A DNA stretch of 64,000 nt from the IMG/VR virus record IMGVR_UViG_3300030685_000353, positions 1-64,000 of that record, one strand, 5' to 3'. Position 1 is the stretch's first letter; each line of letters starts with the position of its first letter. The position numbers were made by a program, and so were the translations under genes. This document shows positions 20,630 to 62,800 of the stretch, one piece after another. A model generated the notes under the pieces. That model did no database searches and was not told the origin of the DNA. It worked only from the letters and a program-made list of their open reading frames with translations. Source of the stretch: a virus.

Positions 20630-21061
20630 TTATTTGAAATATCCTTGACTTCGCAAGATTTTTTCTAAATCAATTAACTCGGCAGTGAAGCTGTCTCCGA
20701 ATGTTTTAGCAGTATAGTCAAACTCTTTTCTTCCAATTTCCTCTTTTTGACAATACCATTTTATCATTTCTTCAGAAAGACCATTCTTTTTCTTTTCTTC
20801 TATGACTTTCTTTTTAGTTTTTGCATAAATCCAAGGCGGAACAGTTTTATACATTCTACTCATATTTGCATGCCAGTAATCAGATGTTGCTGCTGCGTTA
20901 ATTTTTATATGAGATAAAACAGCTACTTGAACAGGATATTTTATGCTAAGAAATCTCGAAGTCATGAAAAAGTTTCGAGCTTTGTCATTATCCATTACTT
21001 CTTTCCACTGTTTTTCGTTAGCAGTAAATACTAACTTAATATAATCGAACAAGGGTATCAT
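20630..21061 (-). CDS. Putative clamp loader small subunit (T4 gp62-like)
   Basis: LFDY..., FMTSRFLS, W.Y.KTKK; size and proximity to the gp44-like gene. Confidence 0.45.
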   Translation of the reverse strand: MIPLFDYIKLVFTANEKQWKEVMDNDKARNFFMTSRFLSIKYPVQVAVLSHIKINAAATSDYWHANMSRMYKTVPPWIYAKTKKKVIEEKKKNGLSEEMIKWYCQKEEIGRKEFDYTAKTFGDSFTAELIDLEKILRSQGYFK

Positions 21062-21064
21062 TTT

Positions 21065-21805
21065 TTAATGTTTTAAAGTTTTAAAAGATTTATTTTCTAT
21101 TTGTATATCGAAATCTCGTATTTGATTTCGAGTAATTCTATTTCTATGTACACCAAAGAAATCAGATGCTTTCTTTATAGAGATAAATTCATAATGTTCA
21201 TGCTTCCTATAGACATGAACTGTTACACCCTTATTTCCAGGCTTACGTTTGCTCAATATTTTATCTCTCTGTTCAGCTGTCCAGGATTTCCCTGATAGTG
21301 CTTCAGATAAATGTTTACAGTGTTCAAGAGTTCGCGGAGGTAGTTTTATACCAAGATGTGAATTTCGCAATTTGTCTTTAGCTTCGTCAGTATGTGTTTT
21401 ATTGTACATCCCATTTTTATAGCCTGACACTTTCTCACTTATCAATGTTCTAAGTTTTTCTATATCAGCCGGAAGTCTATCTTTTGACCACCCATTCCTG
21501 AAATTTTTCACGAATTTAGATAGATTACCTCCTTGACCACCTGATACAAGGTTGTAACTCATCTTGTCATTTACTGCATCAGTTTGCTCTATCCATATAG
21601 CTTCTCTCTGAGAAAGTTGTTCAAGGGTTTCGCACTCTTCTAATATTTCCTTCTTAAAATTTTCTTTGCCATATTTCTTAATAGCAGACAAGATTGCAGT
21701 ACCTGAACCCAGATACCCGTAATAGTTTTTAGCATCTTTCCCTATGTACCATTTGCCGTTTATTTGATTTACAGTTTTGTATATGACCATACCTTTATAG
21801 AACAC
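21065..21805 (-). CDS. Free-standing GIY-YIG homing endonuclease (Seg-like) with NUMOD3-type repeats
   Basis: VIYKTVNQINGKWYIGK, YLGSG, YNLVSGG, HTDEAKDKLR; real start may be the Met at about 21790. Confidence 0.88.
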   Translation of the reverse strand: MFYKGMVIYKTVNQINGKWYIGKDAKNYYGYLGSGTAILSAIKKYGKENFKKEILEECETLEQLSQREAIWIEQTDAVNDKMSYNLVSGGQGGNLSKFVKNFRNGWSKDRLPADIEKLRTLISEKVSGYKNGMYNKTHTDEAKDKLRNSHLGIKLPPRTLEHCKHLSEALSGKSWTAEQRDKILSKRKPGNKGVTVHVYRKHEHYEFISIKKASDFFGVHRNRITRNQIRDFDIQIENKSFKTLKH

Positions 21806-21806
21806 A

Positions 21807-21832
21807 AAAGGGAGAAGTTTTAATTTCTCCCT
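21807..21832 (-). terminator. Rho-independent terminator
   Basis: agggagaa...ttctccct with an A-run. Confidence 0.6.
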
Positions 21833-21853
21833 ACAAAATTTATTATGAAAGGT

Positions 21854-22189
21854 TTATAGTCCGAAAAGTTTCTGTCCAAATATAGAAATAACAGTTAATG
21901 CAAACTGAACTATAGCAAATATTGTAACTGCTTTCGTTTTAAATGTTTTCAGATCATCGATCTCTTTCACCATTGCTGCTAATTGAGTAGTCGATATAAC
22001 TTCATCCATTTTTTGTTTCCACTGTCTTAATTCATCAACTTTGTCTTCGCGATCTTTCATAATCGCAAGCTCCTTTTTGATGTCTTGTATTTCTGCATTT
22101 AGCTCAACTATACCTTTCGATAAGGTTTCTAACTCCTTAAGAACGAGTCTTGAATATTCGTTCCACCCGTTTTGTCCATTTTCAGCCAT
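21854..22189 (-). CDS. Coiled-coil protein with C-terminal TM helix (possible holin-like)
   Basis: NGWNEYSRLVL, heptad repeats, hydrophobic tail. Confidence 0.5.
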   Translation of the reverse strand: MAENGQNGWNEYSRLVLKELETLSKGIVELNAEIQDIKKELAIMKDREDKVDELRQWKQKMDEVISTTQLAAMVKEIDDLKTFKTKAVTIFAIVQFALTVISIFGQKLFGL

Positions 22190-22266
22190 TACATAAACTA
22201 ATTTTACTTACTATTTATTTGCATCTACTAGTAATTTTCGATACGCATACGATAGTTAAGGTAAAA

Positions 22267-31398: not shown

Positions 31399-31755
31399 TT
31401 AAATTCCTAGTGCATCTCTTATCTCAGCAGATTTCATGTCTTTACCTAATCTATATGCATCATTCCTGAGTCTTTCGATAGAGTTATAGATGCAATCTAT
31501 CTTAGTATATTTTAATGCTTGCTGATCGATATATTTTTGAATACCCTCGATTGGAACCTTTGCTTTGATCATAGCAGTAATTTTTTTACCGGGTATAGTA
31601 TCTTTGTATATCTTACCAGAAATTCCAAGAATACAATTACTTACCCAATATGAAATATCATTCTGTGATATTGAATGATCACCGAGTATGTCAAATACTC
31701 TTACAGCTGAACATCTTTTTTCACCTTTTCCTATTACAAATTCATTCCAACTCAT
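31399..31755 (-). CDS. Hypothetical protein
   Basis: ORF downstream of the tRNA. Confidence 0.6.
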   Translation of the reverse strand: MSWNEFVIGKGEKRCSAVRVFDILGDHSISQNDISYWVSNCILGISGKIYKDTIPGKKITAMIKAKVPIEGIQKYIDQQALKYTKIDCIYNSIERLRNDAYRLGKDMKSAEIRDALGI

Positions 31756-31769
31756 ATTGTTTTATTTTG

Positions 31770-31850
31770 TGGTCTCCGGAGGATTCGAACCTCTTACATA
31801 TCAGGGTTAGAATCTGACGCCTAGTCCACCGGGCATTATGTTCGAAGACC
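31770..31850 (-). tRNA. Atypical tRNA with CUA anticodon (amber suppressor; Gln-like anticodon arm)
   Basis: Acceptor GGTCTTC/GGAGACC+A; D arm GCC-CGGTGGACTA-GGC; anticodon arm TCAGA-TTCTAAC-CCTGA; T arm GAGG-TTCGAAT-CCTC; no encoded CCA; 7 extra nt before the D arm. Confidence 0.75.
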
Positions 31851-31861
31851 ATGATTGATTA

Positions 31862-31903
31862 ATTATGATACAAAAATATAACAAATTCTATATTCTAGAA
31901 AAA
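31862..31903 (-). promoter_or_regulatory. Host-type promoter directly upstream of the suppressor tRNA
   Basis: Minus strand tagaatttgttaTATTTTTGtatcat (TAnnTTTG). Confidence 0.65.
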
Positions 31904-31924
31904 GGGATCCGAAGACCCCTTTTC
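31899..31924 (-). terminator. Rho-independent terminator
   Basis: aaaaggg-atccgaagac-ccctttt. Confidence 0.65.
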
Positions 31925-31934
31925 TTTTTTCTTT

Positions 31935-32456
31935 TTAATATCTAGTAACGTCAAATTCTGGATCAAATTTAGCTTTTAAAGATAGATACAATTCATATTC
32001 TTGTTTGTAACGTTGTTCTGCCGCAAGTTTTGCTCTTTCTTCAGCTTCTTTTGCTCTACGAATAGAATCATTTTTTTCAGTTTCTATTTTCTTAACTAGA
32101 TCATCTAAATAAGCTTTAAATATTTCATTTATGGCATCAGTATTTTGATTAGTATGTTTTATTGCAACCATACGCTTTGCACAATATGTAGTGACAAGAA
32201 ATAATTTGTGAGATATAACATTCTTAGTATTTTGTCCATGATACGAAATTTCTCTATTGATATTAATAGAAGTTACATTATTTTTATGTAATACGAAAAT
32301 ATTCTCTTTATCCTCAGATAATTTTACTACGAAAAATGATTTCTGATCACTATATACGCCTTTATATCCACTACGAATGGAATACTCAAAAATGTGTTTT
32401 GATGTTTCTTCGATGTACTTGATAATGTCCAATTTGATTTCTTCTGTTGTTTTCAT
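31935..32456 (-). CDS. Hypothetical protein
   Basis: ORF; C-terminal coiled coil ending ELYLSLKAKF. Confidence 0.65.
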   Translation of the reverse strand: MKTTEEIKLDIIKYIEETSKHIFEYSIRSGYKGVYSDQKSFFVVKLSEDKENIFVLHKNNVTSININREISYHGQNTKNVISHKLFLVTTYCAKRMVAIKHTNQNTDAINEIFKAYLDDLVKKIETEKNDSIRRAKEAEERAKLAAEQRYKQEYELYLSLKAKFDPEFDVTRY

Positions 32457-32465: not shown

Positions 32466-32798
32466 TTATTTTTTTAAAATTAGGGGTAAATTAGATAGTT
32501 CTTTTCTTATGGGGGAATTTGCATATAGACATAAGGATGTACACTGATCAATGTCTGGTTCGTAGAACTTTGACACTTCAGTGACATCCTTGTATTTATC
32601 GTAATAAAAATCTAAATGTAATTCTGTAGGAACTGATAGACAGATAATGGAATTCGATTCCTCTTTCCAAGAGGAAAATCTATCAGGGTAAATATGTGCA
32701 AAATCAGCTATTGAGTGAGCGGATTGTACAACTTGATATCCAGGGTGGATATCAGATCTTGTAATAATGACTAGTTTCGGTTCTTTAATCTATAGCAT
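32466..32798 (-). CDS. Pth2-like peptidyl-tRNA hydrolase with in-frame TAG at codon 3
   Basis: ATG CTA TAG ATT AAA GAA CCG... gives ML*IKEPKLVIITRSDIHPGYQVVQSAHSIADF...WKEESNSIICLSVPTE...FYEPDIDQCTSLCL...LSNLPLILKK; matches the Pth2-type pattern K(L/M)xxxxRxD, QxxH, FxEPD, T, LxxLPL; 111 codons fill the gap exactly. Confidence 0.8.
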
Positions 32799-46331: not shown

Positions 46332-46793
46332 ATTATATTGTTAGAGCAAAATTGACAGTTTCTTATTTTGCATGTTTTACAATCGTAAATTGATGTATTA
46401 TTATCGATCCAATCTTCTTCCATGTGGTTTTATTTTTAATTACAATACAAATATAACACATTTCTATCATAGTGGGAAACGCTAGATAAAAAGAAGTGCA
46501 AGAATGAAACAGATTGATAAGACGTAGAACGAAATGACGACTTTTGGGAATGTAAGTTTCATGTCTGTAGCATTTTGATTAGTAATAAGTACCTATTTAG
46601 GAGTCTTTAAGATTAAGGACGAATACTCGAAGGAATTGGCGTTGGATAATGGATTAGATATTTAATCCGAAATCTATGAACGTAGTAGTCTTTCCTTTCA
46701 TGAAATCTCCATACGAGGGAGCTGCGATATTGTTCTTTGAACAGTAAATGCAATACAGTAACCAGAGTTTGAATGGGTTCATATGTCTATTTG

Positions 46794-47006
46794 TTATTCA
46801 TCTTCTTCTGATGGATCTAGTTCGATTAGTTCAAATTCCTGAAAGAGTCCTTGGACGAAAATGTCAACTTCTCGGTAGGTTTGAAGGATGTCTTTATAAC
46901 GAAGTACACATTCGATGAAATTCTCAGTACATTCTGGAGTCAAATATCCATTAGCGAGATCGATTAGATATTGACGAAGTTCTTCTAGTGTGATAGGCTG
47001 TTCCAT
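46794..47006 (-). CDS. Small acidic hypothetical protein
   Basis: ORF. Confidence 0.55.
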   Translation of the reverse strand: MEQPITLEELRQYLIDLANGYLTPECTENFIECVLRYKDILQTYREVDIFVQGLFQEFELIELDPSEEDE

Positions 47007-47088
47007 GATAATGGTTTATATTAATGATGGTTCCAAGTTTAAGACGAATACTCGAAGGAAACGTCTTAAACTTGGTCTATCCTTGCTG

Positions 47089-47472
47089 TTAATGATTACG
47101 ATAGTACTCTTTGCGTCTATTTACGATTCCTCTGATGCAGCAATGTAGAGCTTCGATAGGGTCAGTGAAGAGGATGCGATCTACCATATAGCTGATGAAC
47201 TGGTCATTTCCATAATTAGCAGGGCGTTTGACTTTTATCACTGGGTTTATCTGATACATCTGATTCCAGCCGACGTGTTTAACTATTCTACGTACATATC
47301 CTGATGAATATATGCCGTAGTAGACTTTTGATTCAGTATCGAAAATGAAGATAGTTCCATTCTTCCGTTGAGTATCTGAAGAAACATCTGATATACCACC
47401 TATCTGACAAAGTGTAAGAAGAATGTGTTTTCTGATGTCGTCTGTGAGTGTGAATGTATGTGGGGTTGCCAT
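47089..47472 (-). CDS. Hypothetical protein with SSDTQRKNGT motif
   Basis: Motif shared with 25637..26059. Confidence 0.6.
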   Translation of the reverse strand: MATPHTFTLTDDIRKHILLTLCQIGGISDVSSDTQRKNGTIFIFDTESKVYYGIYSSGYVRRIVKHVGWNQMYQINPVIKVKRPANYGNDQFISYMVDRILFTDPIEALHCCIRGIVNRRKEYYRNH

Positions 47473-47644
47473 AATATTAAGAACAGATGATTTGACCTAC
47501 TACATAGAATACAAGGCATGAAAAGAGGGTGATTTCCCAAGGAGAAGATTTTTTGATGAGTTGTTTGATACGTTTCATATTGTTTAATTTTTAATTACAA
47601 TACAAATATAATACAATTCTATCAAGTGGGGAAACGTAAGATGA

Positions 47645-47806
47645 TTAATCTTGAAAATGTTTTATCGAACTGTCTTCGTCTTCTTCATCCTTTTCGATGT
47701 TGGTTGAAAAGGACTTGTCGTAGTCCTCTTCTTCCTTATCTATGTTAACAGAGAAGTTATCGTAGTCATCCTCTTCTTCTTTCCAATCACTTCCAAATAG
47801 TGTCAT
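47645..47806 (-). CDS. Highly acidic 53-aa repeat microprotein
   Basis: MTLFGSDWKEEEDDYDNFSVNIDKEEEDYDKSFSTNIEKDEEDEDSSIKHFQD; start coupled to the upstream stop (TAATG). Confidence 0.6.
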   Translation of the reverse strand: MTLFGSDWKEEEDDYDNFSVNIDKEEEDYDKSFSTNIEKDEEDEDSSIKHFQD

Positions 47807-48324
47807 TAGTCTATCAGAAATTTGAGGCGGTACATTCTTGTGTTGCCATTATCGTAAGGGTCATTGATGATTCCGTGGAATATCCAAAGGTCATCTGATT
47901 CCACTCTATCAGTAGCATCTAGGATACATTTAGTTATTTCGCGAAGGGAAGTAGGAGCGTTGTCCACTTTGATATCGATTGCGATATCACAATCTTCTGT
48001 GGCCCTGCCATTGTTTTTAACAGATGAACAATAGATTTTATGACCGTAAAATTTGAGGGACTTTTCCAGTTTGGCTTTCTGTTTCAGAAGAAGTTCGTGA
48101 CGAGGATCGATTACTGTGACATCTACTGTTTCTTTGTAGTTCTCAATGTCATTGAAGATCGTGGAAGAGTTAATTCCAGTACAAATTGAAAGCATATTGG
48201 CCATGTCTGAATGAGTAAAGATCGGATCATTCGATAGATGGTTATGAGCGTTCTTGATAAGAAGTTTGTAGTGCTCTTTAATGTGTCGTTTATCGACTTC
48301 TAATTGTGAGGGAATATTGTTCAT
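47806..48324 (-). CDS. Hypothetical protein
   Basis: ORF behind a promoter repeat. Confidence 0.65.
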   Translation of the reverse strand: MNNIPSQLEVDKRHIKEHYKLLIKNAHNHLSNDPIFTHSDMANMLSICTGINSSTIFNDIENYKETVDVTVIDPRHELLLKQKAKLEKSLKFYGHKIYCSSVKNNGRATEDCDIAIDIKVDNAPTSLREITKCILDATDRVESDDLWIFHGIINDPYDNGNTRMYRLKFLID

Positions 48325-48387
48325 AAGTTTTATTTTTAATTACAATACAAATTTAATACAATTCTATCAATATTGAAAACGCTGGAG

Positions 48388-48894
48388 CTATAATTTTTGC
48401 AGTTCAGAGAGTCGAATTCTTATCCTTGCAAGTTCTTCATCAGTGTAAGTGCCCGGGATGATATTTTGAGGATTTATGCGACTCCAAACGACTTTGCCGT
48501 CATGTATTAAGTCCCATGATATAAATTGGTTAAATCTGAGCTCTTTCTTTTTACCTTTCTTTCTGAGTATGAGAAGGTCATTATCAAGTCCGTAGCTTCC
48601 GAAGATGTAGCATTCGCATTCTTGAGCGGTTTGGAAGCAGTGGATTGAATCATCCTGGTATTCGTGTAATCGAATAGTGACTTTATCTCCAGGTTTGAGT
48701 CCCATACTCTCAAGGTGTGCTTGGCCGTAGATTTCTTCTTTCTTTTTGTAACTTTCTAATACGGCTAATTCACTTTCACAAATATGATCGATCTGTTCCG
48801 CTGTAAGTAGACAACGGGTAGTTTGGAAGTACCTCATTCCCATATATTCTCTTACTTCTTGAGTCATGTAGTCCCAAAGTTCTGTTTTTGTCAT
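48388..48894 (-). CDS. Hypothetical protein
   Basis: ORF. Confidence 0.65.
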   Translation of the reverse strand: MTKTELWDYMTQEVREYMGMRYFQTTRCLLTAEQIDHICESELAVLESYKKKEEIYGQAHLESMGLKPGDKVTIRLHEYQDDSIHCFQTAQECECYIFGSYGLDNDLLILRKKGKKKELRFNQFISWDLIHDGKVVWSRINPQNIIPGTYTDEELARIRIRLSELQKL

Positions 48895-48895
48895 C

Positions 48896-49072
48896 TTAGC
48901 GTTGATTACGTGAATTGTAGCGATCGATTGTCTCTTGATCAGTTTGACCGGGTCTGGCTTCTATTTGAACTCCTTTTGCCACTGTAACCATGCGTCCTTT
49001 TATTACTCCCATTGCTAGTTTCGTAGCTGGTACTTTACTTTTGTATACTCCGTATTTTGTATTATTGTCCAT
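48896..49072 (-). CDS. Small basic hypothetical protein
   Basis: Start corrected to MDNNTK, downstream of the promoter repeat. Confidence 0.6.
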   Translation of the reverse strand: MDNNTKYGVYKSKVPATKLAMGVIKGRMVTVAKGVQIEARPGQTDQETIDRYNSRNQR

Positions 49073-49140
49073 ATTGATTGTTTTATTAATTACAATACAA
49101 ATATAATACAATTCTATCAAAGTGGGAAAAGCTTGATAAA

Positions 49141-49362
49141 CTAAAATCCGTCGAATCCTAAAGTTACTGCCTCTTTGAGGTTTGCAACTTTTTTGGCGTT
49201 AGGGTACGTGGTCATGATTTCTTCCTCTGTGAGGATATTGTGAACAAGAACTTCTCCATGTAACATGCATGCTACGTATTTCTGAGAAGCGACAGCCTTA
49301 CCGAAAGTAGCGTACGTTTTATCGACTGGTAAAAAGTAGAGGTTTCCTATTGTGAATAACAT
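49141..49362 (-). CDS. Hypothetical protein
   Basis: Start corrected to MLFTIG. Confidence 0.55.
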   Translation of the reverse strand: MLFTIGNLYFLPVDKTYATFGKAVASQKYVACMLHGEVLVHNILTEEEIMTTYPNAKKVANLKEAVTLGFDGF

Positions 49363-49370
49363 AATTTGTC

Positions 49371-49715
49371 TTATTTTGTGGATGGTGTGATTGGTAGAAT
49401 GTAAACGTATCCATCGTATCCTTTGCATTTCCCTGAAGTGCAAGAAACGTAAGAAATAAGGTAATAAAAAGCCTCTGGGCGTTCTGAGTTTTCTGATTGG
49501 AGGAAAACTGATTGGTGAACAGAGCATCCTGATGGATATCTATTCTCTACTCTGGTTTCTGGATCGCCATACCAAGTGACTAATTGATGGGCTGCATTCC
49601 ATAGATTGTCTCCTTGTTTAACTGGAGTTCCGAAATCTGCTGCATCCTCGAAGATTTTAACTGCTCTTTTTTCTAAAAGTGCTTTACAATGGAATCCTTC
49701 TTTATATACTGACAT
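49371..49715 (-). CDS. Hypothetical protein
   Basis: Start corrected to MSVYKEG. Confidence 0.6.
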   Translation of the reverse strand: MSVYKEGFHCKALLEKRAVKIFEDAADFGTPVKQGDNLWNAAHQLVTWYGDPETRVENRYPSGCSVHQSVFLQSENSERPEAFYYLISYVSCTSGKCKGYDGYVYILPITPSTK

Positions 49716-49778
49716 AATGTATGATATTTTAATTACAATACAAATATAATACAATTCTATCAGTATGGGAAACGCTAA

Positions 49779-50201
49779 TCAATTTTTTGACAATTTTATT
49801 TTTCGTGCAAGTTCTTCATATGAATAGTCTCCAACTACTGCATCCATTATGAGAACATCGGGTGATTCAATGTTAGTACCCTTTCCATTGATAGTATCTC
49901 CTTTGGCGTAAGTATTATGTAAGGCGTTCGTAATGCCACTTTGTGAATAATAATGCAGAGTGCCATTGCCATCCTTTACGATTATGTCGTACATAGCGGA
50001 ATATCCTACTACAATAATCGGTCGTTTCAGAGTATTGAGTTCATGACATACGTACTCATTATACTCATCGATATTTTGGGGTGAAGCTACTTTACGAAAG
50101 TCTTTGTCAACTTGGTAGATCGTGCCTATTGTGAATCCCATATATGCATTGCCTGCCATTAAAAATAGTGCTATTGCACCGATGATCAGTATCTTTTTCA
50201 T
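49779..50201 (-). CDS. Exported or membrane-anchored protein
   Basis: Signal-peptide-like MKKILIIGAIALFLMAG. Confidence 0.6.
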   Translation of the reverse strand: MKKILIIGAIALFLMAGNAYMGFTIGTIYQVDKDFRKVASPQNIDEYNEYVCHELNTLKRPIIVVGYSAMYDIIVKDGNGTLHYYSQSGITNALHNTYAKGDTINGKGTNIESPDVLIMDAVVGDYSYEELARKIKLSKN

Positions 50202-50203
50202 GT

Positions 50204-50794
50204 TTAAAATTTTGAAATAGGAAAGTGGAACGGAAATCTTGATTGGTATGCGGATTGTCTACGTAAGAACTTTAGTTCTCCTTCTTCTCTTTCTCTGTGA
50301 AGGTCTAAGAGGTCCTTTTCGCGATCAGATTGATTAACATATACTCTGATTCTGCCATTTAAACAGAAACCGAACGTTTGTCCTTTATTTATTTCTACAT
50401 TTCCCGTGACCATATTAGTGATTGGGAATGTAATAACTATGCCATCTCTAGGGGTTTGAGTTACCGCTTGGACGCGTTCAGTAACTGATACAGGTTCTTT
50501 ATCACCAAAGAAGTGTAGGCAATAAATTGTATCACCAGCTTTAACATCTTCAAGTTCTTTATAGTCGAGGCGGTTGGCTTTTGCCATAATGTCAGCTGCT
50601 AGAGCTTTACATTTCTCGATTATTTCTGGTTGGTAAGGTAGACATTTTCCAGCCTTCCATTCTTTGCCACCGACTGTGACTTCTGTCTTTTCTGGGACTC
50701 CCGAAGGTAAATCACCACTGTACTGAATAAAGGCTCTGAATACTCCTGTATTCGTGAATCGAACCGTGATGTGTACTTTATTTGTTGTGTTCAT
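50204..50794 (-). CDS. Hypothetical protein
   Basis: Start corrected to MNTTNK. Confidence 0.65.
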   Translation of the reverse strand: MNTTNKVHITVRFTNTGVFRAFIQYSGDLPSGVPEKTEVTVGGKEWKAGKCLPYQPEIIEKCKALAADIMAKANRLDYKELEDVKAGDTIYCLHFFGDKEPVSVTERVQAVTQTPRDGIVITFPITNMVTGNVEINKGQTFGFCLNGRIRVYVNQSDREKDLLDLHREREEGELKFLRRQSAYQSRFPFHFPISKF

Positions 50795-50857
50795 TTGATT
50801 TATAATTTGATTACAATACAAATATAATACAATTCTAATGAAGTGAGAAACGTAAGT

Positions 50858-51094
50858 TTACAATTTTGTAACTATAGCGTCTGGAACGACTTCTTTTATT
50901 GCGATATCTAAAAATTCGTGACCAGTGTTAAATGCGACTAACATGTGGTTAGTTATATGTCCTGTTTCGATTAAGATAGTAGCTATTTGGCTATAATCTA
51001 ATCGTTTACGTATCAGGACAAGAACTTCAGGGTTCTGACATGTTATCTGAAGTCCATTCGGCGTTTGATCTCTATTTATTGTTATCAGTGTCAT
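50858..51094 (-). CDS. Hypothetical protein
   Basis: ORF. Confidence 0.55.
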   Translation of the reverse strand: MTLITINRDQTPNGLQITCQNPEVLVLIRKRLDYSQIATILIETGHITNHMLVAFNTGHEFLDIAIKEVVPDAIVTKL

Positions 51095-51377
51095 TTTGTT
51101 CTCTTCGTGCTTTGCGTAGTTTAACCAATTCTGAATAGTTAATAAGTGTCATGTCATACATTCCTTTTGGCCACCGTGAAAGTTCGGCATTCTCATTGAA
51201 CGTAAGTTTATCGTCTTCGTGCATTATATAATACTCCTGAGTGAGGTTCGCTTTAAGGAGGTCTATTTGGAAAGAAGTTAGTTCAACGTCATTGTTCAAA
51301 ACTCCAGCATATTTGTCATCTTTCGTATAGACCCTTAGGATAGGGTATGTGTATCTTCTAATTGGGAACTTTTTCAT
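51072..51377 (-). CDS. Hypothetical protein
   Basis: ORF. Confidence 0.6.
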   Translation of the reverse strand: MKKFPIRRYTYPILRVYTKDDKYAGVLNNDVELTSFQIDLLKANLTQEYYIMHEDDKLTFNENAELSRWPKGMYDMTLINYSELVKLRKARREQNDTDNNK

Positions 51378-51383
51378 AGTTGA

Positions 51384-51755
51384 TTATTTTGTTGTTACAA
51401 ATTCGAGTTCGTCTCCGTATACTGTGCTGTATTTAGTTGTGATATATGCACGAATATAATATTTTGTGTTCGGTTGGAGGTCGCTTAAGTTGGCAGTAAA
51501 AGTGATTGGAGTTTTGGCCTTTTCAAACAATTCTTGATTCAGTGACATAATTTTGGTATCACGAATAGTGGGTTGTGGATGTGTAGACCAGACTACTCCA
51601 GTTTCTGTTAAAGAGCTTACATGAATGCCGTATCCACCAGATGTCGCATAATTAGCGGAAATCTTGGTTACGGGCGTTGTACTGATATACTGTGTGGTCT
51701 CTGATGTACAACTGAGAGTGAAAAGGATAAGGGCGAAGAGGATATACTTTTTCAT
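51384..51755 (-). CDS. Lipoprotein with fibronectin type III domain
   Basis: MKKYILFALILFTLSC lipobox; GVVWSTHPQPT...LSDLQPNTKYYIRAY...YGDELEFVT, typical of Bacteroidota FN3 modules. Confidence 0.75.
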   Translation of the reverse strand: MKKYILFALILFTLSCTSETTQYISTTPVTKISANYATSGGYGIHVSSLTETGVVWSTHPQPTIRDTKIMSLNQELFEKAKTPITFTANLSDLQPNTKYYIRAYITTKYSTVYGDELEFVTTK

Positions 51756-51956
51756 TATAAATGGAATAAGATGATGAATACTAATCCTAAGATAATTGAA
51801 AGTGCCACGAGGCAAATTTTCTGATAAGTAGTGAAGCGTTTCATATTGTTATGTTTTAATTACAATACAAATATAATACAATTCTATCAGTTTGGGAAAC
51901 GTAAGCAAAAAAAAAGAAGAGAACTGAGTCCCTTCTTCTTTTTAACAGATTGTTTT

Positions 51957-52640
51957 TTATTTAGCTATAAAGTGAACTGAAAGCATACCGGGTGAGTCTG
52001 TGGCTGGAGCGATCATTACGTCTTTCCAACCGGCTTCCAAGTAGAGTGCCTTGACTTCTTCTAGAATATCGGTGCTTATGCCCTTTGCGTTAATAAAAGA
52101 GTGAATGAAACCGTCTTCTCTAACGTCTTTCGGGTTAGCGTCTTTAACATGAGCTTCGAAGATTGCCACTGTTTCTTCAAGGGAAAGATCGGGGAAGAAC
52201 TTTTTAGGCCCGGTTACAGAGAATGGGCTTTCTTCTCCTACTGGAGGAAGAGAAATGGGCCAGATACCAACCATATCGGCTTCTTTAACTTCATATCCTG
52301 AATCATGGGCTAATGCTTGAGCTTCTATGAATCCGATTCGAGTTCCTGGTGCATTAACCAGTACGGCATAGAATGATTCAGGGTCTCCATTATGAATATC
52401 AAAGACTACGAGGTGGTTTGGATCGGGCATACCTCTGTGTACTGGAATCAACCAACTTTCTGGATAACCAAATTTGTCATCTTCTTCAATGAGGTTCATT
52501 TGAGGATGTGACCTTAATAGAAAGGTGATGTTAATGTTGTTCTTTTCGAAGCCGGAAATACTCCAATTTCTGTTTGATATGAGGATGCAGGGGTTACATC
52601 TTGCATCTGAAATTTCTGATTTGAAAATAATTTTGTCCAT
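51957..52640 (-). CDS. Hypothetical protein
   Basis: ORF behind a promoter repeat. Confidence 0.65.
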   Translation of the reverse strand: MDKIIFKSEISDARCNPCILISNRNWSISGFEKNNINITFLLRSHPQMNLIEEDDKFGYPESWLIPVHRGMPDPNHLVVFDIHNGDPESFYAVLVNAPGTRIGFIEAQALAHDSGYEVKEADMVGIWPISLPPVGEESPFSVTGPKKFFPDLSLEETVAIFEAHVKDANPKDVREDGFIHSFINAKGISTDILEEVKALYLEAGWKDVMIAPATDSPGMLSVHFIAK

Positions 52641-52701
52641 TTGATTTTATTATTTGATTACAATACAAATATAATACAATTCTAACGAAGTGTAAAACGT
52701 A

Positions 52702-53064
52702 TCAATAATTATGTAATCTAAGTGTGTGGTCGATATAAAAATCTACAAGGGACTCGATGAATCCATTTCCTTTCGGGAGGTACAGTTCAGAATAATCGTT
52801 GGTTAAAATTTCTTCACGTTTTCCCATTATTGTAACTGTGATGCATTCCTCGTTTGAACCGAAAGTCTTCGTGAATTGTTGGAACTCGTACTTTTCAGTT
52901 ATTTCGTCACCATTTCTGAATTTAATGGAGATGTCTGATTCGCATTCGTCTACAGTACCGGTTACTTCTTCTACGAGGTGATGCCATCTCCAATTTTCGA
53001 CATTTCCTGCTTCTGCCTTGATTACAGTGGCATCACCTTGTAGTTTTAAAAGTGTCTTTAACAT
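52702..53064 (-). CDS. Acidic hypothetical protein
   Basis: ORF. Confidence 0.6.
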   Translation of the reverse strand: MLKTLLKLQGDATVIKAEAGNVENWRWHHLVEEVTGTVDECESDISIKFRNGDEITEKYEFQQFTKTFGSNEECITVTIMGKREEILTNDYSELYLPKGNGFIESLVDFYIDHTLRLHNY

Positions 53065-53297
53065 TTCTTTTTCCCTTTCTTTTTCTCAATTAGAGGTTTA
53101 GGGGCTAAAGAAGATCGGAACCATGCTGCATTTGCGAAAGAAAATTCTGGTGCTTCTTCTTTTTGAAAGAGTTCAGGGTGGCGGGTTCCTGATGCTATGG
53201 ATTGTGCTACGGCAGAATTTGTGTCTACCGAACGTGCTGAATGTTTAAATCCTGATAAAGTTTTGTCTTGTACGTCTCCGATATGTCCTGATCTCAT
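53058..53297 (-). CDS. Hypothetical protein with basic tail
   Basis: Start corrected to MRSGHIG. Confidence 0.55.
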   Translation of the reverse strand: MRSGHIGDVQDKTLSGFKHSARSVDTNSAVAQSIASGTRHPELFQKEEAPEFSFANAAWFRSSLAPKPLIEKKKGKKKC

Positions 53298-53381
53298 AAT
53301 GTATAATTTTATATTGTTGTTTTTAATTACAATACAAATATAATACAATTCTAACAGTGTAGGAAACGCTACTCAATTTAT

Positions 53382-53606
53382 TTATTCATGATGTTTTTTA
53401 CAATTATAAATCCGTGCTCTTCTGGAACGTACTATTGAGGTGACTACTGCAATAATGATCGATTCTGCATTGATCAAGATTACGTCCCCTATTTTCGGTC
53501 TGATGCGGTCTGAATTGAACTGTGTCGTTCGACCTCTGTGCAAAATCTTGATTATATGTTTCATGTGGCTTAGCAGACGCATAAGGCTTTGTGCCTTTGT
53601 GCCCAT
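53382..53606 (-). CDS. Small basic hypothetical protein
   Basis: ORF; real start possibly MKHIIK. Confidence 0.4.
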   Translation of the reverse strand: MGTKAQSLMRLLSHMKHIIKILHRGRTTQFNSDRIRPKIGDVILINAESIIIAVVTSIVRSRRARIYNCKKHHE

Positions 53607-53637
53607 ATAGTGCGCAATGTTTGTCTTAAATGTACAA

Positions 53638-53675
53638 GAAACTGCATCCTTATAATTGTTAAGGATGCAGTTTTT
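53638..53675. terminator. Strong hairpin/terminator after the histone-like gene
   Basis: aaactgcatcctta-taattgt-taaggatgcagttt. Confidence 0.75.
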
Positions 53676-53692
53676 ATATTTCCTTACCCGGA

Positions 53693-54265
53693 TTAATTAT
53701 GGGCTAGGATGGCTTTTTTCAATTTGAAAATCTTTTTGTTACCTTCGATTTCGATACGTAACCATTCATCTCCTTTTTCATCTTTGTCGTAAACTTTCAG
53801 GAGTTTTCCTTCTTGAACCCCGGCTGATCGGAATTTTGAATTTCGGGCTGGGAGGAATGATACGATTTGGTCAGCTTTAAGAGCGGTTTCCGGAGTCATA
53901 AGGTTGGTGGCGTTCGGTGTGATACCATCGATAACTTTCGGAGTAAGTTTTACCTTTGCAGGTTTTTCAGCTTTTGGTGTTACCACTTTTTCAGCTTTTA
54001 CTTTGGCCACTTTTTCAGCTTTTGGTTTTTCAGTTTTTTCCTTGGCTACCTTTTCAGTTTTAGGTGCTTCTGTTTTTTCAGCTTTTGGTTTGGCCACTTT
54101 TTCAGCTTTTGGTTTTTCAACTTTTGCCTTTGGAGCTGTTTTTTCGTTACGAGATGCTACGATTTCTTGGGCTGAGGCTAAATCTTCAGGAGATAAGTTA
54201 CCAGTAGCGATTTTTTTGTTAAGTTCAGTTGTACTGAATTTTGACATTGGGTTTGTTGTTGACAT
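53693..54265 (-). CDS. Lys/Ala/Pro/Glu-rich (histone H1-like) repeat protein
   Basis: Repeats KAEKVAKPKAEK, KTEKPKAEKVAK; preceded by three tandem promoters. Confidence 0.7.
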   Translation of the reverse strand: MSTTNPMSKFSTTELNKKIATGNLSPEDLASAQEIVASRNEKTAPKAKVEKPKAEKVAKPKAEKTEAPKTEKVAKEKTEKPKAEKVAKVKAEKVVTPKAEKPAKVKLTPKVIDGITPNATNLMTPETALKADQIVSFLPARNSKFRSAGVQEGKLLKVYDKDEKGDEWLRIEIEGNKKIFKLKKAILAHN

Positions 54266-54306
54266 AATTTCTAAGTTTTTGGAAGTTTATAAAATTGTTA
54301 TTGATT

Positions 54307-54526
54307 AATTACTATACAAAAATAATACTTTTTGAATGAATGGTAAAAAGTATTTCAAATTATTTTTTCGTTTTGTAAAAGAAATGTTTAGTTTGATTTA
54401 CTATACAAAAATAATACTTTTTGACTGAATGGTAAAAAGTATTTCAAATTATTTTTTACGTTAAAAAATAATGTTTGGTTTGATTTACTATACAAAAATA
54501 ATACTATTCTATAGGTTAGTAAAACG
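54307..54526 (-). repeat. Three tandem ~88-bp promoter-containing repeats
   Basis: ttactatacaaaaataatact occurs three times; tgaatggtaaaaagtatttcaaattatttttt occurs twice. Confidence 0.85.
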
Positions 54527-54537
54527 TATCGAAAAAA

Positions 54538-54771
54538 TTATTCCTCTATAATAAGTTTATTTTCGAACATAGAAGGAAATTCGGTAACGTTCTCACCTTC
54601 TATTTCTAGCATCTTACATACTATTTTTTCTTGCTTGTCATGGACAGTAATTTTGCCGTACGAATCAAATTGAAGCTCTATGCCTAATTTAGTCATCAGG
54701 TCTTCAATCTGTCTGAGTTTCTGAGTTGTTGGATGTGTCTCCAGTAGTCGCTTTGCCATCTTTGTGATCAT
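54538..54771 (-). CDS. Hypothetical protein
   Basis: ORF. Confidence 0.55.
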   Translation of the reverse strand: MITKMAKRLLETHPTTQKLRQIEDLMTKLGIELQFDSYGKITVHDKQEKIVCKMLEIEGENVTEFPSMFENKLIIEE

Positions 54772-55022
54772 TTATTAGTGGTACAAATATCATTAGTGCT
54801 AGTAAAAGTGTAGCGACTAAGAATGAAAAAATTAACTCTTCGAAAATATTGAGTTCCATTAGTCGAGGATTTCAAATTCTGCTTCCTCTACAACTCTAAC
54901 TTCTGCTGTGGCGAGGTAAATGAATACCAAAAGTGCCATAATTTCAAGATCTGTCATATTATTGTTATGTTTTAATTACAATACAAATATAATACAATTC
55001 TATCAGCTGGGGAAAAGTCTGG

Positions 55023-55319
55023 TCAATAATTTTGTTTTAACCAAGACTTGAAGCTATTCTTTTTATTTCGTTGATCGTTTTGAGTCTTAAGCGTGGCATA
55101 GAATATGTCGTACTCTTTATAAATTTCATCCCAACTTGGCTTCGTGAAGTCGTTTTTAGGATAGGAATACATTTCGTACCCTAATCGATCTACCAATTTA
55201 CGGGCTGAGGCTTTCATTTCGTCATCGTGACAATCATTTTGATAATTTCCTAATGCCACTGCTATTAAAGCTATCTCTTTACACGATAGTTTCGTTTTTA
55301 TTACTCCATTAATGTCCAT
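55023..55319 (-). CDS. Hypothetical protein
   Basis: ORF. Confidence 0.55.
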   Translation of the reverse strand: MDINGVIKTKLSCKEIALIAVALGNYQNDCHDDEMKASARKLVDRLGYEMYSYPKNDFTKPSWDEIYKEYDIFYATLKTQNDQRNKKNSFKSWLKQNY

Positions 55320-55321
55320 AA

Positions 55322-55537
55322 TTATCTGTATAAAATTACATGTTCACCGAAATATTTTTCAAATACACTTATAAGATTCTCGTAATCTCCAGAGGTTAAT
55401 TCAGCTTGAATTGCGTCGTGGTCGAGGCCGAGTTGTTTAGATAAGTCGCTGGCATATCCAAGTAATACAAATGCATTGCCTTGTGGTCCAGTCAGATCTA
55501 GACTTGGATATTCCGGTTCAATTTTTTTCCTTATCAT
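55322..55537 (-). CDS. Conserved small phage protein (LTGPxGNAF type)
   Basis: LDLTGPQGNAFVLLG...SGDYENL. Confidence 0.7.
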   Translation of the reverse strand: MIRKKIEPEYPSLDLTGPQGNAFVLLGYASDLSKQLGLDHDAIQAELTSGDYENLISVFEKYFGEHVILYR

Positions 55538-55600
55538 TTTTTTATTATTTGATTACAATACAAATATAATACATTTCTAACAAATGGTAAAAAGCTTTAC

Positions 55601-56395
55601 TTAAAAACCGAACTTTTTTCCTAAAATTTGTCCCCGTCTTGTATGAACCTCTTCATGTGATAATAATACTATACATTCATTTCGCTTCAATTCATTGTAG
55701 CCGCTTCTCCATTTCTTGTAGAGCAGATCTGCAGCTTTATCCCATCCTTCTTGGGTTTCAGCGATGAATGCCTTATCCTCGTAAAATAAAAATGCATTCC
55801 CTTTAACACCTATTGTAGCATTTTGATTCATTTTGGCATATCCATAACCATTGAACTGTGCCCATGAATTTCGAGTACATATTAATCTCATTGTGAAAAA
55901 GTTACTCAAGTCAAATAGTTCATTTTTCGAGTCGATTATTACAAAATGAGGCAATGTTAATAAAATGCCAACCTCAGTGTCAGAGTTTATGTAACTTATA
56001 TTGAAGCCAGCTTTTTTGTATTTTTTTAATTCAGTGTGCTTTGCCTTACGGAGTAAAGATTCAGAGTCAATATTTAATTCTCTAAGGCGTTGCTCCTCTT
56101 CATTTTGTTTTATCCTTTTAAGGAGCTTTAATAACCCATTCTTCCACCCTTCTAAAGTGTCAGGAATAAAACTTACGCATGGTCTATTGTCGCAATTTAT
56201 TTTTCCGCCATGATAAATTTGATATGACACTTTATAATCATCATTATTGTATCGCTGACGTGATTTTAAGGCCTTTATTTTAAATGTCGTTACAGCTTGC
56301 CTATTCGTTCTAATATTCTCAAAGCCCATCTTCAGAATCTCTTGATATTCAGGGAGGTTCTCAATTACTTTGCGGGTGGTTTCATCAATAATCAT
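55601..56395 (-). CDS. Hypothetical protein with C-terminal RGQILGKKFGF tag
   Basis: ORF behind a promoter repeat. Confidence 0.7.
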   Translation of the reverse strand: MIIDETTRKVIENLPEYQEILKMGFENIRTNRQAVTTFKIKALKSRQRYNNDDYKVSYQIYHGGKINCDNRPCVSFIPDTLEGWKNGLLKLLKRIKQNEEEQRLRELNIDSESLLRKAKHTELKKYKKAGFNISYINSDTEVGILLTLPHFVIIDSKNELFDLSNFFTMRLICTRNSWAQFNGYGYAKMNQNATIGVKGNAFLFYEDKAFIAETQEGWDKAADLLYKKWRSGYNELKRNECIVLLSHEEVHTRRGQILGKKFGF

Positions 56396-56533
56396 AAAAG
56401 TTATTTTTAATTACAATACAAATATAATACAATTCTTCCAACTGGCAAAAAGTAAACATAAAAAAGTGGCCCCTCTTCACAGAGAAACCACCCGGTGGCC
56501 GAAGCCGTGTAATCAAAAATCTTATGAAACTCT

Positions 56534-56624
56534 TGGTGCCGAGGGAGGGTTACGATTCCTCATTCCTTCGTCAGAAGGACTTACACAGCAGCTGAAGCCA
56601 TGTCTACCATTAGTTTACCTCGGC
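56534..56624 (-). tRNA. Degenerate tRNA-Leu(CAG)-like gene
   Basis: Acceptor GCCGAGG/CCTCGGC + A + CCA; TGGTAGAC; long variable arm TCCTTC-TGAC-GAAGGA; loop TTCAGCT; aberrant T loop ATCGTAA and weak D stem. Confidence 0.6.
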
Positions 56625-56724
56625 CACACTCCGTCCGATTATTACGAACCAAATCGATTATGGCATAGCCAATCGGAGGGCAGTGTGGGATTGTTTTGAT
56701 CAAAACAGACGGTGATCAGCCATC

Positions 56725-56792
56725 GTGGGGTTAGCAGAATCGAACTACTCTTTGCCGTGCACTAGCCGTCCTAACCGATAGACGAAACCCCC
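56725..56792 (-). tRNA. tRNA-like gene (Glu/Asp-type D arm) with shortened anticodon arm
   Basis: GGGGTT/AACCCC acceptor; D arm GTCT-ATCGGTT-AGGAC; T arm AGTAG-TTCGATT-CTGCT; only 18 nt between D and T arms. Confidence 0.55.
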
Positions 56793-56825
56793 AGAGTGTA
56801 TAGCTATACCACTCCTTTCTGTCCT

Positions 56826-57041
56826 TTAGCAGGACATAATGCTTGTCGTAGCCATTGTATTTAACGAATTTGCAATAACGTTAGCTACGTTACTTATATT
56901 TTTCTTTGTCACCTTACCTCCTACATATACACGTGATACTTCTACTTTATCGAGGTGTATTCCTGTGTCTACTTTGACCTCTGTTACCTCCACTATACGA
57001 TATGTATTAACGGTATGTTCTTCTGCAATGTAATGTGCCAT
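56826..57041 (-). CDS. Hypothetical protein
   Basis: ORF behind a promoter repeat, upstream of the tRNA-like cluster. Confidence 0.55.
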   Translation of the reverse strand: MAHYIAEEHTVNTYRIVEVTEVKVDTGIHLDKVEVSRVYVGGKVTKKNISNVANVIANSLNTMATTSIMSC

Positions 57042-57248
57042 AATTGATTTATTTTATGATACAAAAATAAACAAAAAACTCATTATGGTAAAACGCCTAT
57101 ACACATGCGTTCTTGTGCATTTTGTACAAGCAGCAATTGCAAGGTTGCCATATATAAACCATTAATCGCCTTATTATTGTCATAATACCAGAGTTTACGT
57201 CTTTGAAAAAGGTTTAAATGATATATAAACCAAAATAAATTTGAAAAT

Positions 57249-57389
57249 ATGAAGGTGATAGCTTATATTCTACTCGGCATTCTTCTTACAATTGGTCTAG
57301 CTTATGGAGGATTTGTGCTCTGGGCTAACCGTATATTGAAAGATTTTGTAATAGGTGACTTAGATTTTGATGAAGACGAAATGATTTAA
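57249..57389 (+). CDS. 46-aa single-TM protein with acidic tail
   Basis: MKVIAYILLGILLTIGLAYGGFVLWANRILKDFVIGDLDFDEDEMI; GATATATAAAC at 57220 upstream. Confidence 0.55.
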   Translation: MKVIAYILLGILLTIGLAYGGFVLWANRILKDFVIGDLDFDEDEMI

Positions 57390-57808
57390 AACCCGAATTT
57401 TCGTGACTTAATCATGCCTCGCTTGACATGTTTCCATTCTTCCCATAATGTATATTCTGATTTCTCGAACAGTTTCCAATCAGTAGGAAACTCTTCTTTG
57501 ATAAATTTATAGCTCAAACGTATTGCCATAATGCGAGTTGCTACAGAAGACCAAGGAAGATCTGCAATGATGACTTCCTGATGCATTCCTACGACTACTG
57601 TTTCTACCTTACCCTCAACTGGCTTAAAGTAAAAAACTTGGGCCTTAAGTGCTGGCATATTTTGTAATCCAGAAGTATTTGTGCAATGATCTGAAAGTAT
57701 TTTATCTAAGTACCAAGAACCCTGTTCAGTCACAAGAACAGGGGCAATCCCCTGTTCCCATGGCCAAATACCTAAGCATTCCAGTATTGTATCAACCTTT
57801 GTGTTCAC
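57386..57808 (-). CDS. Hypothetical protein with C-terminal RGMIKSRKFGF tag
   Basis: ORF. Confidence 0.7.
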   Translation of the reverse strand: MNTKVDTILECLGIWPWEQGIAPVLVTEQGSWYLDKILSDHCTNTSGLQNMPALKAQVFYFKPVEGKVETVVVGMHQEVIIADLPWSSVATRIMAIRLSYKFIKEEFPTDWKLFEKSEYTLWEEWKHVKRGMIKSRKFGF

Positions 57809-58367
57809 TTACTAAGCGTTTATATTCGGTGATTATATCGAGCATATACTGTACCATTTCTCTTGCAGATTCAGTACCAGAAACGTTATTCGGATAACCG
57901 GTAGAGTAGTCTCCTATATACCAAGTATTACGAGCATAATAACCGGATGTGTATATCTTAGCAGCTTGTGACTTTCTCGTAAACTCAGCTTTTTCATAAT
58001 CCTTTTTTGCAAAAGTACTACCAGTCTTACTGATAAAGAAATTATCTGATTCATCCACGATTTCTACTTCAATTGTACGTTGGCCTTTCTTTTTGGCTAG
58101 TTCATCGTTAATGATACGTAATCCCTTGGTCACATATTCACCTTTGCCATTTAAAATAGCTAGAGCTTTTTCTAGTGAAGTAGTTGGTATGTCGAATCTG
58201 GCATTATCTTTACGGAAATAGAATCGTTTGCTTTCGCGGAAACGTGGAACTTGATAGACAAATTCTACATTAGGTGCTATTTCAATACGTTCAGTTTCAG
58301 TGATTTTATCAGAAAATGATAAGACCGTACGATGTGTGATAGTCTGTAGGTGATCTATTTTTGTCAT
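57792..58367 (-). CDS. Hypothetical protein (paralogue of 58364..58909)
   Basis: IVDESDNFFISKTGSTFAKKDYEK. Confidence 0.65.
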   Translation of the reverse strand: MTKIDHLQTITHRTVLSFSDKITETERIEIAPNVEFVYQVPRFRESKRFYFRKDNARFDIPTTSLEKALAILNGKGEYVTKGLRIINDELAKKKGQRTIEVEIVDESDNFFISKTGSTFAKKDYEKAEFTRKSQAAKIYTSGYYARNTWYIGDYSTGYPNNVSGTESAREMVQYMLDIITEYKRLVSEHKG

Positions 58368-58909: not shown

Positions 58910-59030
58910 GTTTTAGTTTTAAATTACAATACAAAAATAACTAAAAAAGCTCATTAAAGAAAACGTAGCTAAGCCTCTCTTAAAATAGGTTTGTGTTAAT
59001 GGCACCATATATGCGCATCTATTCACACTG

Positions 59031-59060
59031 CAAAGGGTCTTCATCTCGAAGACCCTTTTG
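59031..59060 (-). terminator. Hairpin terminator after ligA
   Basis: aaagggtcttc-atctc-gaagaccctttt. Confidence 0.7.
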
Positions 59061-59064
59061 CTAC

Positions 59065-61008: not shown

Positions 61009-61018
61009 ATTGATTGTT

Positions 61019-61599: not shown

Positions 61600-61677
61600 A
61601 ACCTTTATGGAACGTGTTAGTTTAAATTTGGTTCCAATACAAAGGTAAACAAAAGAAGTTGTGTTAGAAAACGCAGC

Positions 61678-62756: not shown

Positions 62757-62800
62757 AAGATGTTTATTATTTGATTACAATACAAATTTAATCAATTTTC

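Follow-up and report, generated by a model that had tools for sequence, protein, structure and literature searches.

We found an 81-nt tRNA-like gene with a CUA anticodon on the minus strand of the DNA stretch analyzed here (positions 1–64,000 of a virus contig; hereafter the window). Judged by its sequence and by that of a homologue in a related phage (G001), the element appears to be a real, conserved tRNA gene of irregular architecture, and its most likely role would be amber suppression in a phage that uses the standard genetic code. The contig is 73,505 nt long, 35% complete (CheckV) and has a G+C content of 33%, with nearly all genes on the minus strand. It encodes a tail sheath, a T4-type large terminase, a ribonucleotide reductase, an NAD-dependent ligase, a clamp-loader-like ATPase and two sigma factors. 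The sequencing runs listed with this stretch number 24, of which 23 are labelled peat metagenome and none is an RNA run; contigs from four runs showed no variant within the element.

Direct reading of the minus strand gave every tRNA landmark with one exception, the segment that joins the acceptor strand to the D stem. Nine nucleotides (GAACAUAAU, element positions 8–16, window 31843–31835) lie at this place, where canonical tRNAs have a 2-nt connector (positions 8–9). Like a canonical tRNA, the element has four base-paired arms, a T loop of the UUCRANY form (UUCGAAU) and a 7-nt anticodon loop (UUCUAAC) with U33, a purine at position 37 (A37) and the CUA triplet at 31810–31808. The D loop contains UGG, and the discriminator is an A at 31770. 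In the 7/5 reading of the window copy, acceptor pairing extends over 7 bp including one G·U. U8, A14 and A21 are absent by position from both the window copy and the G001 copy, each of which has a connector of 9 nt and not 2. CCA is not encoded in the window copy, where CAA comes next. The initial annotation had described the 9-nt connector, the perfect Watson-Crick complementarity between ACAUA (positions 10–14) and UAUGU (positions 51–55), and A·C oppositions at 31–39 and 49–65. Each of these features was confirmed in the sequence, the mismatches under the usual 7/5 reading of the window copy, so that the description proved accurate. Feature coordinates are listed in Table 1.

Table 1. Coordinates of the tRNA-like gene, its parts and its surroundings (window numbering unless another record is named).
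Feature	Position	Strand	Description
Whole tRNA-like gene	31770..31850	-	81 nt including the discriminator; R1 score 115.5 bits
Acceptor stem, 5' strand	31843..31850	-	Positions 1–8; partner 31771–31778; the eighth pair is G8 with position 65
Extra loop/connector	31835..31842	-	AACAUAAU; positions 9–16; with G8, the 9-nt GAACAUAAU
D arm	31819..31834	-	Positions 17–32; core stem of 3 bp
Anticodon arm	31801..31817	-	Positions 34–50; 4 pairs plus A·C at 31–39
Variable region	31794..31800	-	UAUGUAA; positions 51–57; UAUGU is the proposed 3' strand of the extra helix
T arm	31779..31793	-	Positions 58–72; 4-bp stem, loop UUCGAAU
Acceptor stem, 3' strand	31771..31778	-	Positions 73–80
Promoter-like motif	31862..31878	-	TATTTTTG fits TAnnTTTG (31878–31871) plus core TTTGTATCATAAT (31874–31862)
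Terminator-like hairpin	31899..31919	-	6-bp stem, UUCG loop, U tract; closes the upstream gene 31935–32456
Downstream ORF	31399..31755	-	118 aa, no family; ATG 14 nt after the tRNA end
Cluster of nucleotidyltransferase, RNase T, HAD_SAK_2, CUA tRNA and HD-motif genes	L270:5086–8181 = G001:C1:77085–80180	-	Related phage

The homologue was found with a covariance model (R1) that was built from the window element and contained only the four classical stems. A search of the whole records of terminase relatives returned a full-length 81-nt match in one of five, G001 (42.6 bits, E about 1e-9). This record comprises 89,451 nt with 34.5% G+C; its terminase is 48% identical, and a collinear structural module with 45–59% amino-acid identity is common to it and the window record (G000). 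A MAFFT alignment of the two copies misaligned the D region, and pairs were therefore counted on the model-based alignment. Of the 8 acceptor pairs, 3 were changed on both sides, 1 on one side (G-C to G·U) and none was broken. All three pairs of the D stem core were changed on both sides, as was one of five in the anticodon stem, where three were unchanged and position 31–39 was unpaired in both copies (A·C in the window, C·C in G001). The T stem had 4 pairs, 1 of them changed on one side. In total, seven double-sided changes in the cloverleaf still paired and no pair was lost in one copy only. These counts rest on two distinct sequences, and the model that aligned them was derived from one of the two, a bias towards its structure. 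Covariation as strong as that observed arose in 1 of 500 shuffles, and sliding the partners by 1 to 3 columns in either direction gave nothing near it.

The length of the connector was kept as well, with nine nucleotides in G001, seven of them identical (GAACAUAAU versus GAAAUUAAU; 6/8 without G8). The anticodon loops were identical at six of seven positions, CUA included, and G26 opposite a U, the D-loop UGG, the canonical T loop and A73 were also retained. CCA is encoded after the G001 copy, whose minimum-energy fold is a cloverleaf with the connector unpaired. For the window copy, the minimum-energy fold was not a cloverleaf (-28.5 versus -23.5 kcal/mol for the best cloverleaf). The same was true of 21 of 58 distinct phage tRNAs called by ARAGORN, so that this fold is weak evidence. 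It could be read as a sign of a decaying pseudogene, that is, of a canonical tRNA that took up a 7-nt insertion and has drifted since, as could the failure of all scanners (see below), the A·C mismatches, the missing U8, A14 and A21, and a second, weaker tRNA-like remnant at about 56.7–56.8 kb. Decay of this kind is difficult to reconcile with a relative at 48% terminase identity that keeps the length, the connector, the anticodon and all arms with seven double-sided changes, or with the encoded CCA and the cloverleaf minimum-energy fold of the G001 copy. The initial annotation had named, as one result that would refute its reading, homologues in which the insert is random decay of a pseudogene. 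In the relative, compensatory changes preserve all four arms, and both the 9-nt connector and the CUA loop are kept, which speaks strongly against random decay. The G001 homologue largely refutes the pseudogene reading, which we regard as highly improbable; the seven compensatory changes also argue against a G001 match that is a recently transferred dead copy. The original annotation as a non-canonical suppressor tRNA that scanners may miss is supported.

The two copies also bear on how the stems are to be drawn. At position 65 the window copy has C and the G001 copy U, with G8 and A49 constant. G8 forms a standard pair with position 65 in both copies (G-C and G·U), and A49–65 is A·C in the window copy; in the G001 copy, a 7/5 form with A-U at 49–65 is equally possible. 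Since G8–65 pairs in both, the fold compatible with the two sequences combines 8 bp in the acceptor stem with 4 bp in the T stem, and the 49–65 'mismatch' is better read in this way. A custom scan found the element only with a 4-bp T stem setting. In the alignment to the tRNA-Sec model, each D arm formed an irregular 6-bp stem capped by a UGGN tetraloop. The D arm of the window copy can be extended in that alignment to a Sec/allo-like 6-bp stem (one C·A, one G·U) with a UGGA tetraloop, and that of G001 has 5 bp, a bulge and one more pair around a UGGU loop. The copies show an 8/4 architecture with an irregular, possibly Sec/allo-like long D stem and a UGGN loop, no long variable arm and an extra loop of 7–8 nt.

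For this extra loop, the initial annotation had proposed a fifth helix between ACAUA in the connector and UAUGU in the variable loop, enclosing the D and anticodon arms. Two three-way junctions would then replace the four-way junction. In canonical tRNA, the connector lies antiparallel to the variable loop alongside the D stem, which makes the topology feasible. The 5-bp complement is perfect in the window copy, one pair is compensated in G001 (C-G to A-U), and the connector is rich in A and the variable loop rich in U in the two copies, which allows some A-U pairing in each. However, two of the five pairs become U·U in G001 and two are unchanged A-U, and other registers there give three A-U pairs that differ from the window helix. 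The suggested covariation check of ACATA against TATGT, made on a single homologue, was thus mixed: the compensated pair favoured the helix, the two U·U did not, and the result leans negative. The helix added 0.0 kcal/mol in nearest-neighbour calculations (-19.2 versus -19.2 in the 7/5 form, -21.6 versus -21.6 in the 8/4 form) and was in the minimum-energy fold of neither copy. The 5-bp complement is not clearly beyond chance, as at least five contiguous Watson-Crick pairs occurred in 1.9% of 200,000 random 9-mer/7-mer pairs for this genome and in 5.8% of 200,000 connector shuffles. In the accessible part of the source, published E-loop tRNAs had, by eye, no consistent complement between loop and variable region, and many had an AACAA variable region (PMC5389517). 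With two of five pairs broken in G001, no gain in energy and a chance level of 2–6%, the 5-bp helix was not supported, and we consider it very unlikely. Most likely, the extra loop stays single-stranded or makes tertiary or protein contacts.

As the initial annotation had anticipated, standard scanners missed the gene, with no call from either ARAGORN or Rfam. ARAGORN reported no gene in the window and none in the full 73,505-nt record, and 0 of 4227 Rfam families reached the gathering score. The best sub-threshold Rfam match of the window copy was tRNA-Sec (RF01852) with 18.3 bits (cut-off 47), and the tRNA family RF00005 scored 10.9 bits (cut-off 29). The G001 copy was likewise missed by both programs, and the only ARAGORN call in G001 was a tRNA-Ser elsewhere; at 17.7 bits, also below threshold, the Sec model was again the best Rfam match. 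We then deleted 0–9 bases in silico at every place in the connector, which gave 64 variants. ARAGORN called a tRNA(cta) with the exact element ends in eight of them, all with 6–8 nt removed, and in none of ten unchanged controls. The length of the connector alone therefore blocks detection of the gene. Because of the CUA anticodon, ARAGORN labelled the shortened variants 'tRNA-Pyl'. This anticodon is all that agrees: tRNA-Pyl has a 1-nt connector, a small D loop without GG, a 3-nt variable loop and a non-canonical T loop, whereas the phage gene has a canonical T loop, a canonical D-loop GG and a long connector. Nor does the gene share the UCA anticodon, the long variable arm or the 13-bp branch of tRNA-Sec (RF01852).

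Both phages use the standard genetic code. No TAG-interrupted frame was present in 1–37 kb of the window, and three TAG junctions elsewhere in the record read as separate genes; TAG recoding was rejected on these grounds. The coding density of G001 was 0.97 under table 11. Stop codons were counted in non-overlapping minus-strand ORFs of at least 55 codons. TAG ended 1 of 41 ORFs at 1–37 kb and 17 of 69 at 37001–73505 (Fisher p 0.0025, for a split at 37 kb that was chosen after seeing the data). TGA was used alike in the two parts (11/41 and 19/69), and the TAG trinucleotide, counted in all frames, was not rarer at 1–37 kb. This part contains the structural and DNA-metabolism genes and the tRNA. 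The skew would fit selection against TAG stops in genes that are translated while a suppressor accumulates; a preference for TAA in highly expressed genes is an alternative. In G001, TAG ended 7 of 103 genes, scattered along the record, which indicates general rarity and does not visibly repeat the skew of the window. Back-up stops were no closer behind TAG-ended genes than behind other genes in the window record.

The surroundings of the gene suggest how it might be expressed. The promoter-like motif (Table 1) ends 11 nt before the first base of the tRNA. The 13-mer TTTGTATNRTAAT had 17 matches in the window, all on the minus strand, versus 0.14 expected, and with the last base left free there were 28 copies in the record, again all on the minus strand. 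TAnnTTTG stands before every copy, and a CGTTTT box usually lies about 30 nt upstream; the long motif reads CGTTTT box, ATAGAATTGTATTATA, TTTGTATTGTAAT. Most copies lie 9–29 nt before a start codon, and 26 of the 28 are located at 46–73 kb (window 46439–62786, and on to 72936 in the record), the exceptions being those at 28062 and 31874. The small ORFs of no known family around the copies at 46–73 kb are presumably early genes. The available part of one published account gives the consensus of the primary sigma factor of Bacteroidetes as TAnnTTTG at -7 and TTTG at -33 (PMC7366714). Start codons, among those inspected, had no Shine-Dalgarno sequences. From the promoter motif and the missing Shine-Dalgarno sequences we infer a probable Bacteroidota host. 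Three tandem copies of the motif, about 88 nt apart, were seen at 54266–54537 on the minus strand, the first two with no ORF of at least 40 codons behind them; they could represent small RNA genes or a promoter array. The strict motif was absent from the G001 record, and the sequence upstream of the G001 copy resembles it only loosely (TATATTTA..ATGTAAC).

The terminator-like hairpin upstream of the motif was not listed by the consensus terminator scan, and the sraA and SraG models aligned their terminator parts there. Downstream, there is no terminator between the tRNA and the next ORF, and with its ATG 14 nt away this ORF is probably co-transcribed with the tRNA. Other loci of the window were observed in passing. 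A 107-aa ORF at 32469–32789 (minus strand) gave a faint match to PTH2 peptidyl-tRNA hydrolase (E 0.014, 16 bits, cut-off 23). At 20630–22207, also on the minus strand, a GIY-YIG/NUMOD3 homing-endonuclease-like ORF (21065–21805) lies in the same frame as the ORFs on either side and is separated from them by TAA stops alone; it may have split a gene in two by insertion. At 56715–56800 (minus strand) lies another, weaker tRNA-like stretch, with a 6-bp acceptor pairing, canonical-looking D and T arms and only about 13 nt in place of the anticodon arm. Its fold z-score was +0.6, and it had no Rfam match even at E = 10. For the 81-nt element itself, an attP remnant was considered and rejected, as both acceptor strands are present and no integrase lies nearby.

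On balance, we lean towards a single explanation, in which the element is a real, conserved, irregular tRNA that would be transcribed early, processed, charged and used to suppress UAG. Host RNA polymerase would transcribe it early in infection from the copy of the Bacteroidota-type promoter 11 nt upstream. The transcript would start a few bases into the motif and carry the tRNA at its head and the next ORF behind. RNase P and 3' processing would free the tRNA, CCA would be added, and the remaining transcript would serve as mRNA. Charging would depend on a host synthetase that tolerates the CUA anticodon; by the identity rules of E. coli, A73 and U35 presumably point to Lys or Gln. The charged tRNA would read UAG in a standard-code phage, either as a pre-recoding state or as a read-through tool. 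Against a need for suppression, neither phage fragment has TAG-interrupted genes, in a search that covers about 35% of each genome (CheckV).

The neighbours of the G001 copy widen the range of roles to be weighed. Upstream on the same strand lie, in order, the genes for a nucleotidyltransferase, an RNase_T-family exonuclease (2.7e-08) and a protein with a HAD_SAK_2 domain 'of Swiss Army Knife RNA repair proteins' (1e-19). The first is a tRNA nucleotidyltransferase (PolyA_pol head, 7.9e-16; phrog_24229, 4.5e-60), and the tRNA copy is located two genes downstream of it. Downstream of the copy follows a 183-aa ORF (phrog_14850) with an HD-like motif (Pfam HD, E 0.08, below threshold). Such neighbours are the company of a matured or repaired tRNA, which fits both a working tRNA and a role in a conflict over tRNA damage. 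No nucleotidyltransferase, RNase_T or HAD_SAK_2 gene was present among the 92 window ORFs tested, in a record from which 65% of the genome is missing.

The main rival of amber suppression is accordingly a non-decoding RNA tied to RNA repair: a conserved tRNA-shaped molecule whose CUA loop is kept for recognition and not for reading UAG. It might act as a decoy or substitute substrate in a tRNA cleavage-repair conflict, as a regulator, or as a signal for RNase P processing by which the downstream mRNA acquires its 5' end. The repair block in G001, the position of the window copy within an ORF's 5' leader, where 14 nt separate it from the ATG, and the lack of in-frame TAG in either phage are consistent with such a role, and the 31–39 mismatch widens the anticodon loop in both copies. 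U33, the 7-nt anticodon loop and A37, however, are decoding features. Both the T loop and the D-loop GG have the canonical form, the G001 copy comes with an encoded CCA, and nothing in a pure processing signal would call for conservation of the anticodon loop. It is ordinary for tRNA genes to lie beside a nucleotidyltransferase gene in phages. In favour of a non-decoding role, according to the accessible part of one study, irregular 8/4 tRNAs were charged but unused, or uncharged, and a regulatory role was suggested for them (PMC5389517). Taken together, we consider a non-decoding RNA somewhat unlikely and retain amber suppression as the preferred role.

In structure, the gene belongs with the irregular 8/4 extra-loop tRNAs. 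As far as the accessible parts of the sources describe them, the '(8/4, E-loop) tRNA1' irregular tRNAs come from forest- and peat-soil metatranscriptomes (Mukai et al, 2017, PMC5389517; review PMC7609411). They share with the phage gene acceptor and T stems of 8 and 4 bp, extra nucleotides ahead of the D stem, a length of about 79–81 nt, a short variable region and the peat or forest-soil setting, and they too are false positives or near-misses of the tRNA-Sec model. They differ in having U73 and sense anticodons (GCU, GGU, UGC, GGC, AGC), whereas the phage gene has A73 and CUA. Their extra loop is a 6-nt, AGCUAA-type loop before a 4-bp D stem, as parsed by eye from the supplement sequences, compared with 7–8 nt in the phage. 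They occur in polycistrons with tRNA0 and tRNA2 and are attributed to Acidobacteria; the phage gene, in contrast, is single and lies on a low-GC phage with Bacteroidota-type promoter motifs. Compared by eye only, the primary sequences had nothing alike beyond generic tRNA features. In the same part of that work, neither GlyRS nor ThrRS of E. coli charged the published E-loop tRNA (PMC5389517).

The allo-tRNAs with 8/4 or 9/3 branches, as far as the accessible text describes them, likewise have a 12-bp acceptor/T branch split 8/4 and possibly a 6-bp anticodon stem; their D stem is long and Sec-like with a UGGN tetraloop, which the irregular D stems of the two phage copies may resemble, and some members have nonsense anticodons or are phage-borne (Mukai et al, 2017). 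They differ from the phage gene by a long variable arm, G73 or U73 (serine identity) and the absence of an extra loop; the phage gene has a 5–7-nt variable region and A73. Within the text available, allo-tRNAs with 8/4 or 9/3 branches can be efficient suppressors in E. coli, and six allo-tRNA(UAU) variants changed to CUA were inactive (PMC5389517).

Suppressor tRNAs of phages provide the second point of comparison, drawn here from part of one survey (Borges et al, 10.1101/2021.08.26.457843). Those tRNAs also have CUA anticodons and occur in low-GC phages of standard-code hosts. They are canonical and found by standard predictors, and the phages that carry them have in-frame TAG in late genes, unlike the 73.5-kb window record and the 89 kb of G001, in which no in-frame TAG was found. 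As far as the accessible part of the survey states, suppressor tRNAs were found in only 35–40% of recoded phages, non-canonical suppressors that escape detection were predicted, and suppressors in standard-code relatives were seen as a possible step before recoding (10.1101/2021.08.26.457843).

Further members were sought in several collections. Neither flanking ORF had relatives in viral contigs, the 118-aa ORF matched only its own 90% cluster among 5.8 billion proteins, and the exonuclease query returned no relatives. The best 80 of 171 RNR loci contained no tRNA-like element (ARAGORN, blastn-short); none of these 80 shares any of nine neighbouring proteins, and they are therefore not syntenic relatives. 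Covariance-model searches gave nothing in the four further terminase relatives and nothing in 50 records of RNR relatives, and searches of 33 loci, and of 38 with a two-sequence model of the window and G001 copies (R2), returned only the known copies. Against GenBank phages, BLAST gave only generic 23-nt matches to the 3' end of the window copy (E = 8) and nothing for the G001 copy or the 2-kb region. DNA pattern scans of genomes were run twice, with 0 and 0 matches. In viral contigs, a first pattern scan gave 0 matches and a second at least 120, which among those listed were mostly 30 nt long and tRNA-Arg(UCU)-like. The third yielded four unrelated odd loci (L231–L234), two of them identical. 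These have TTCTAAC followed by a perfect T arm, yet no ARAGORN call, and L232 and L234 begin with a canonical-like tRNA 5' half that runs into a long insert; the four loci may represent further irregular or interrupted tRNAs. A metagenome pattern scan gave a single match, in a near-identical contig (L235) with an identical element (81/81). Most of the 121 columns that differ between the window and this contig fall in a hypervariable block at 32112–32391, within the 173-aa ORF upstream of the tRNA, and the flanks of the block are nearly identical. As the element is identical and the differences cluster in this block, the contig says nothing about selection on the tRNA.

A bolder reading, which we think quite unlikely, would make the two genes the first members of a phage family of working amber suppressors with a new core. 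An obligatory A-rich extra loop would dock on the U-rich variable loop, in some members by forming a helix and in others through tertiary contacts, and so replace U8, A14 and A21. Such tRNAs would be unseen by gene finders and perhaps by host tRNA-targeting nucleases, would be expressed from an early host-type promoter, and would mark a stage just before the reassignment of TAG in large Bacteroidota phages. The near purge of TAG from the stops of middle and late genes in the window record is consistent with such a pre-reassignment stage.

Our interest in the gene is moderate to good, since it offers a testable case of the 'undetectable suppressor tRNA' postulated by recoding surveys. It provides a concrete, conserved case of the non-canonical suppressor tRNAs that are suspected to escape predictors in such surveys, and the two-copy model could serve to re-scan viral collections. 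The 8/4 extra-loop tRNAs, previously metatranscriptome reads without a function, are now placed on a phage genome with a defined promoter motif, known neighbours and an amber anticodon, where their activity can be tested by a simple amber reporter.
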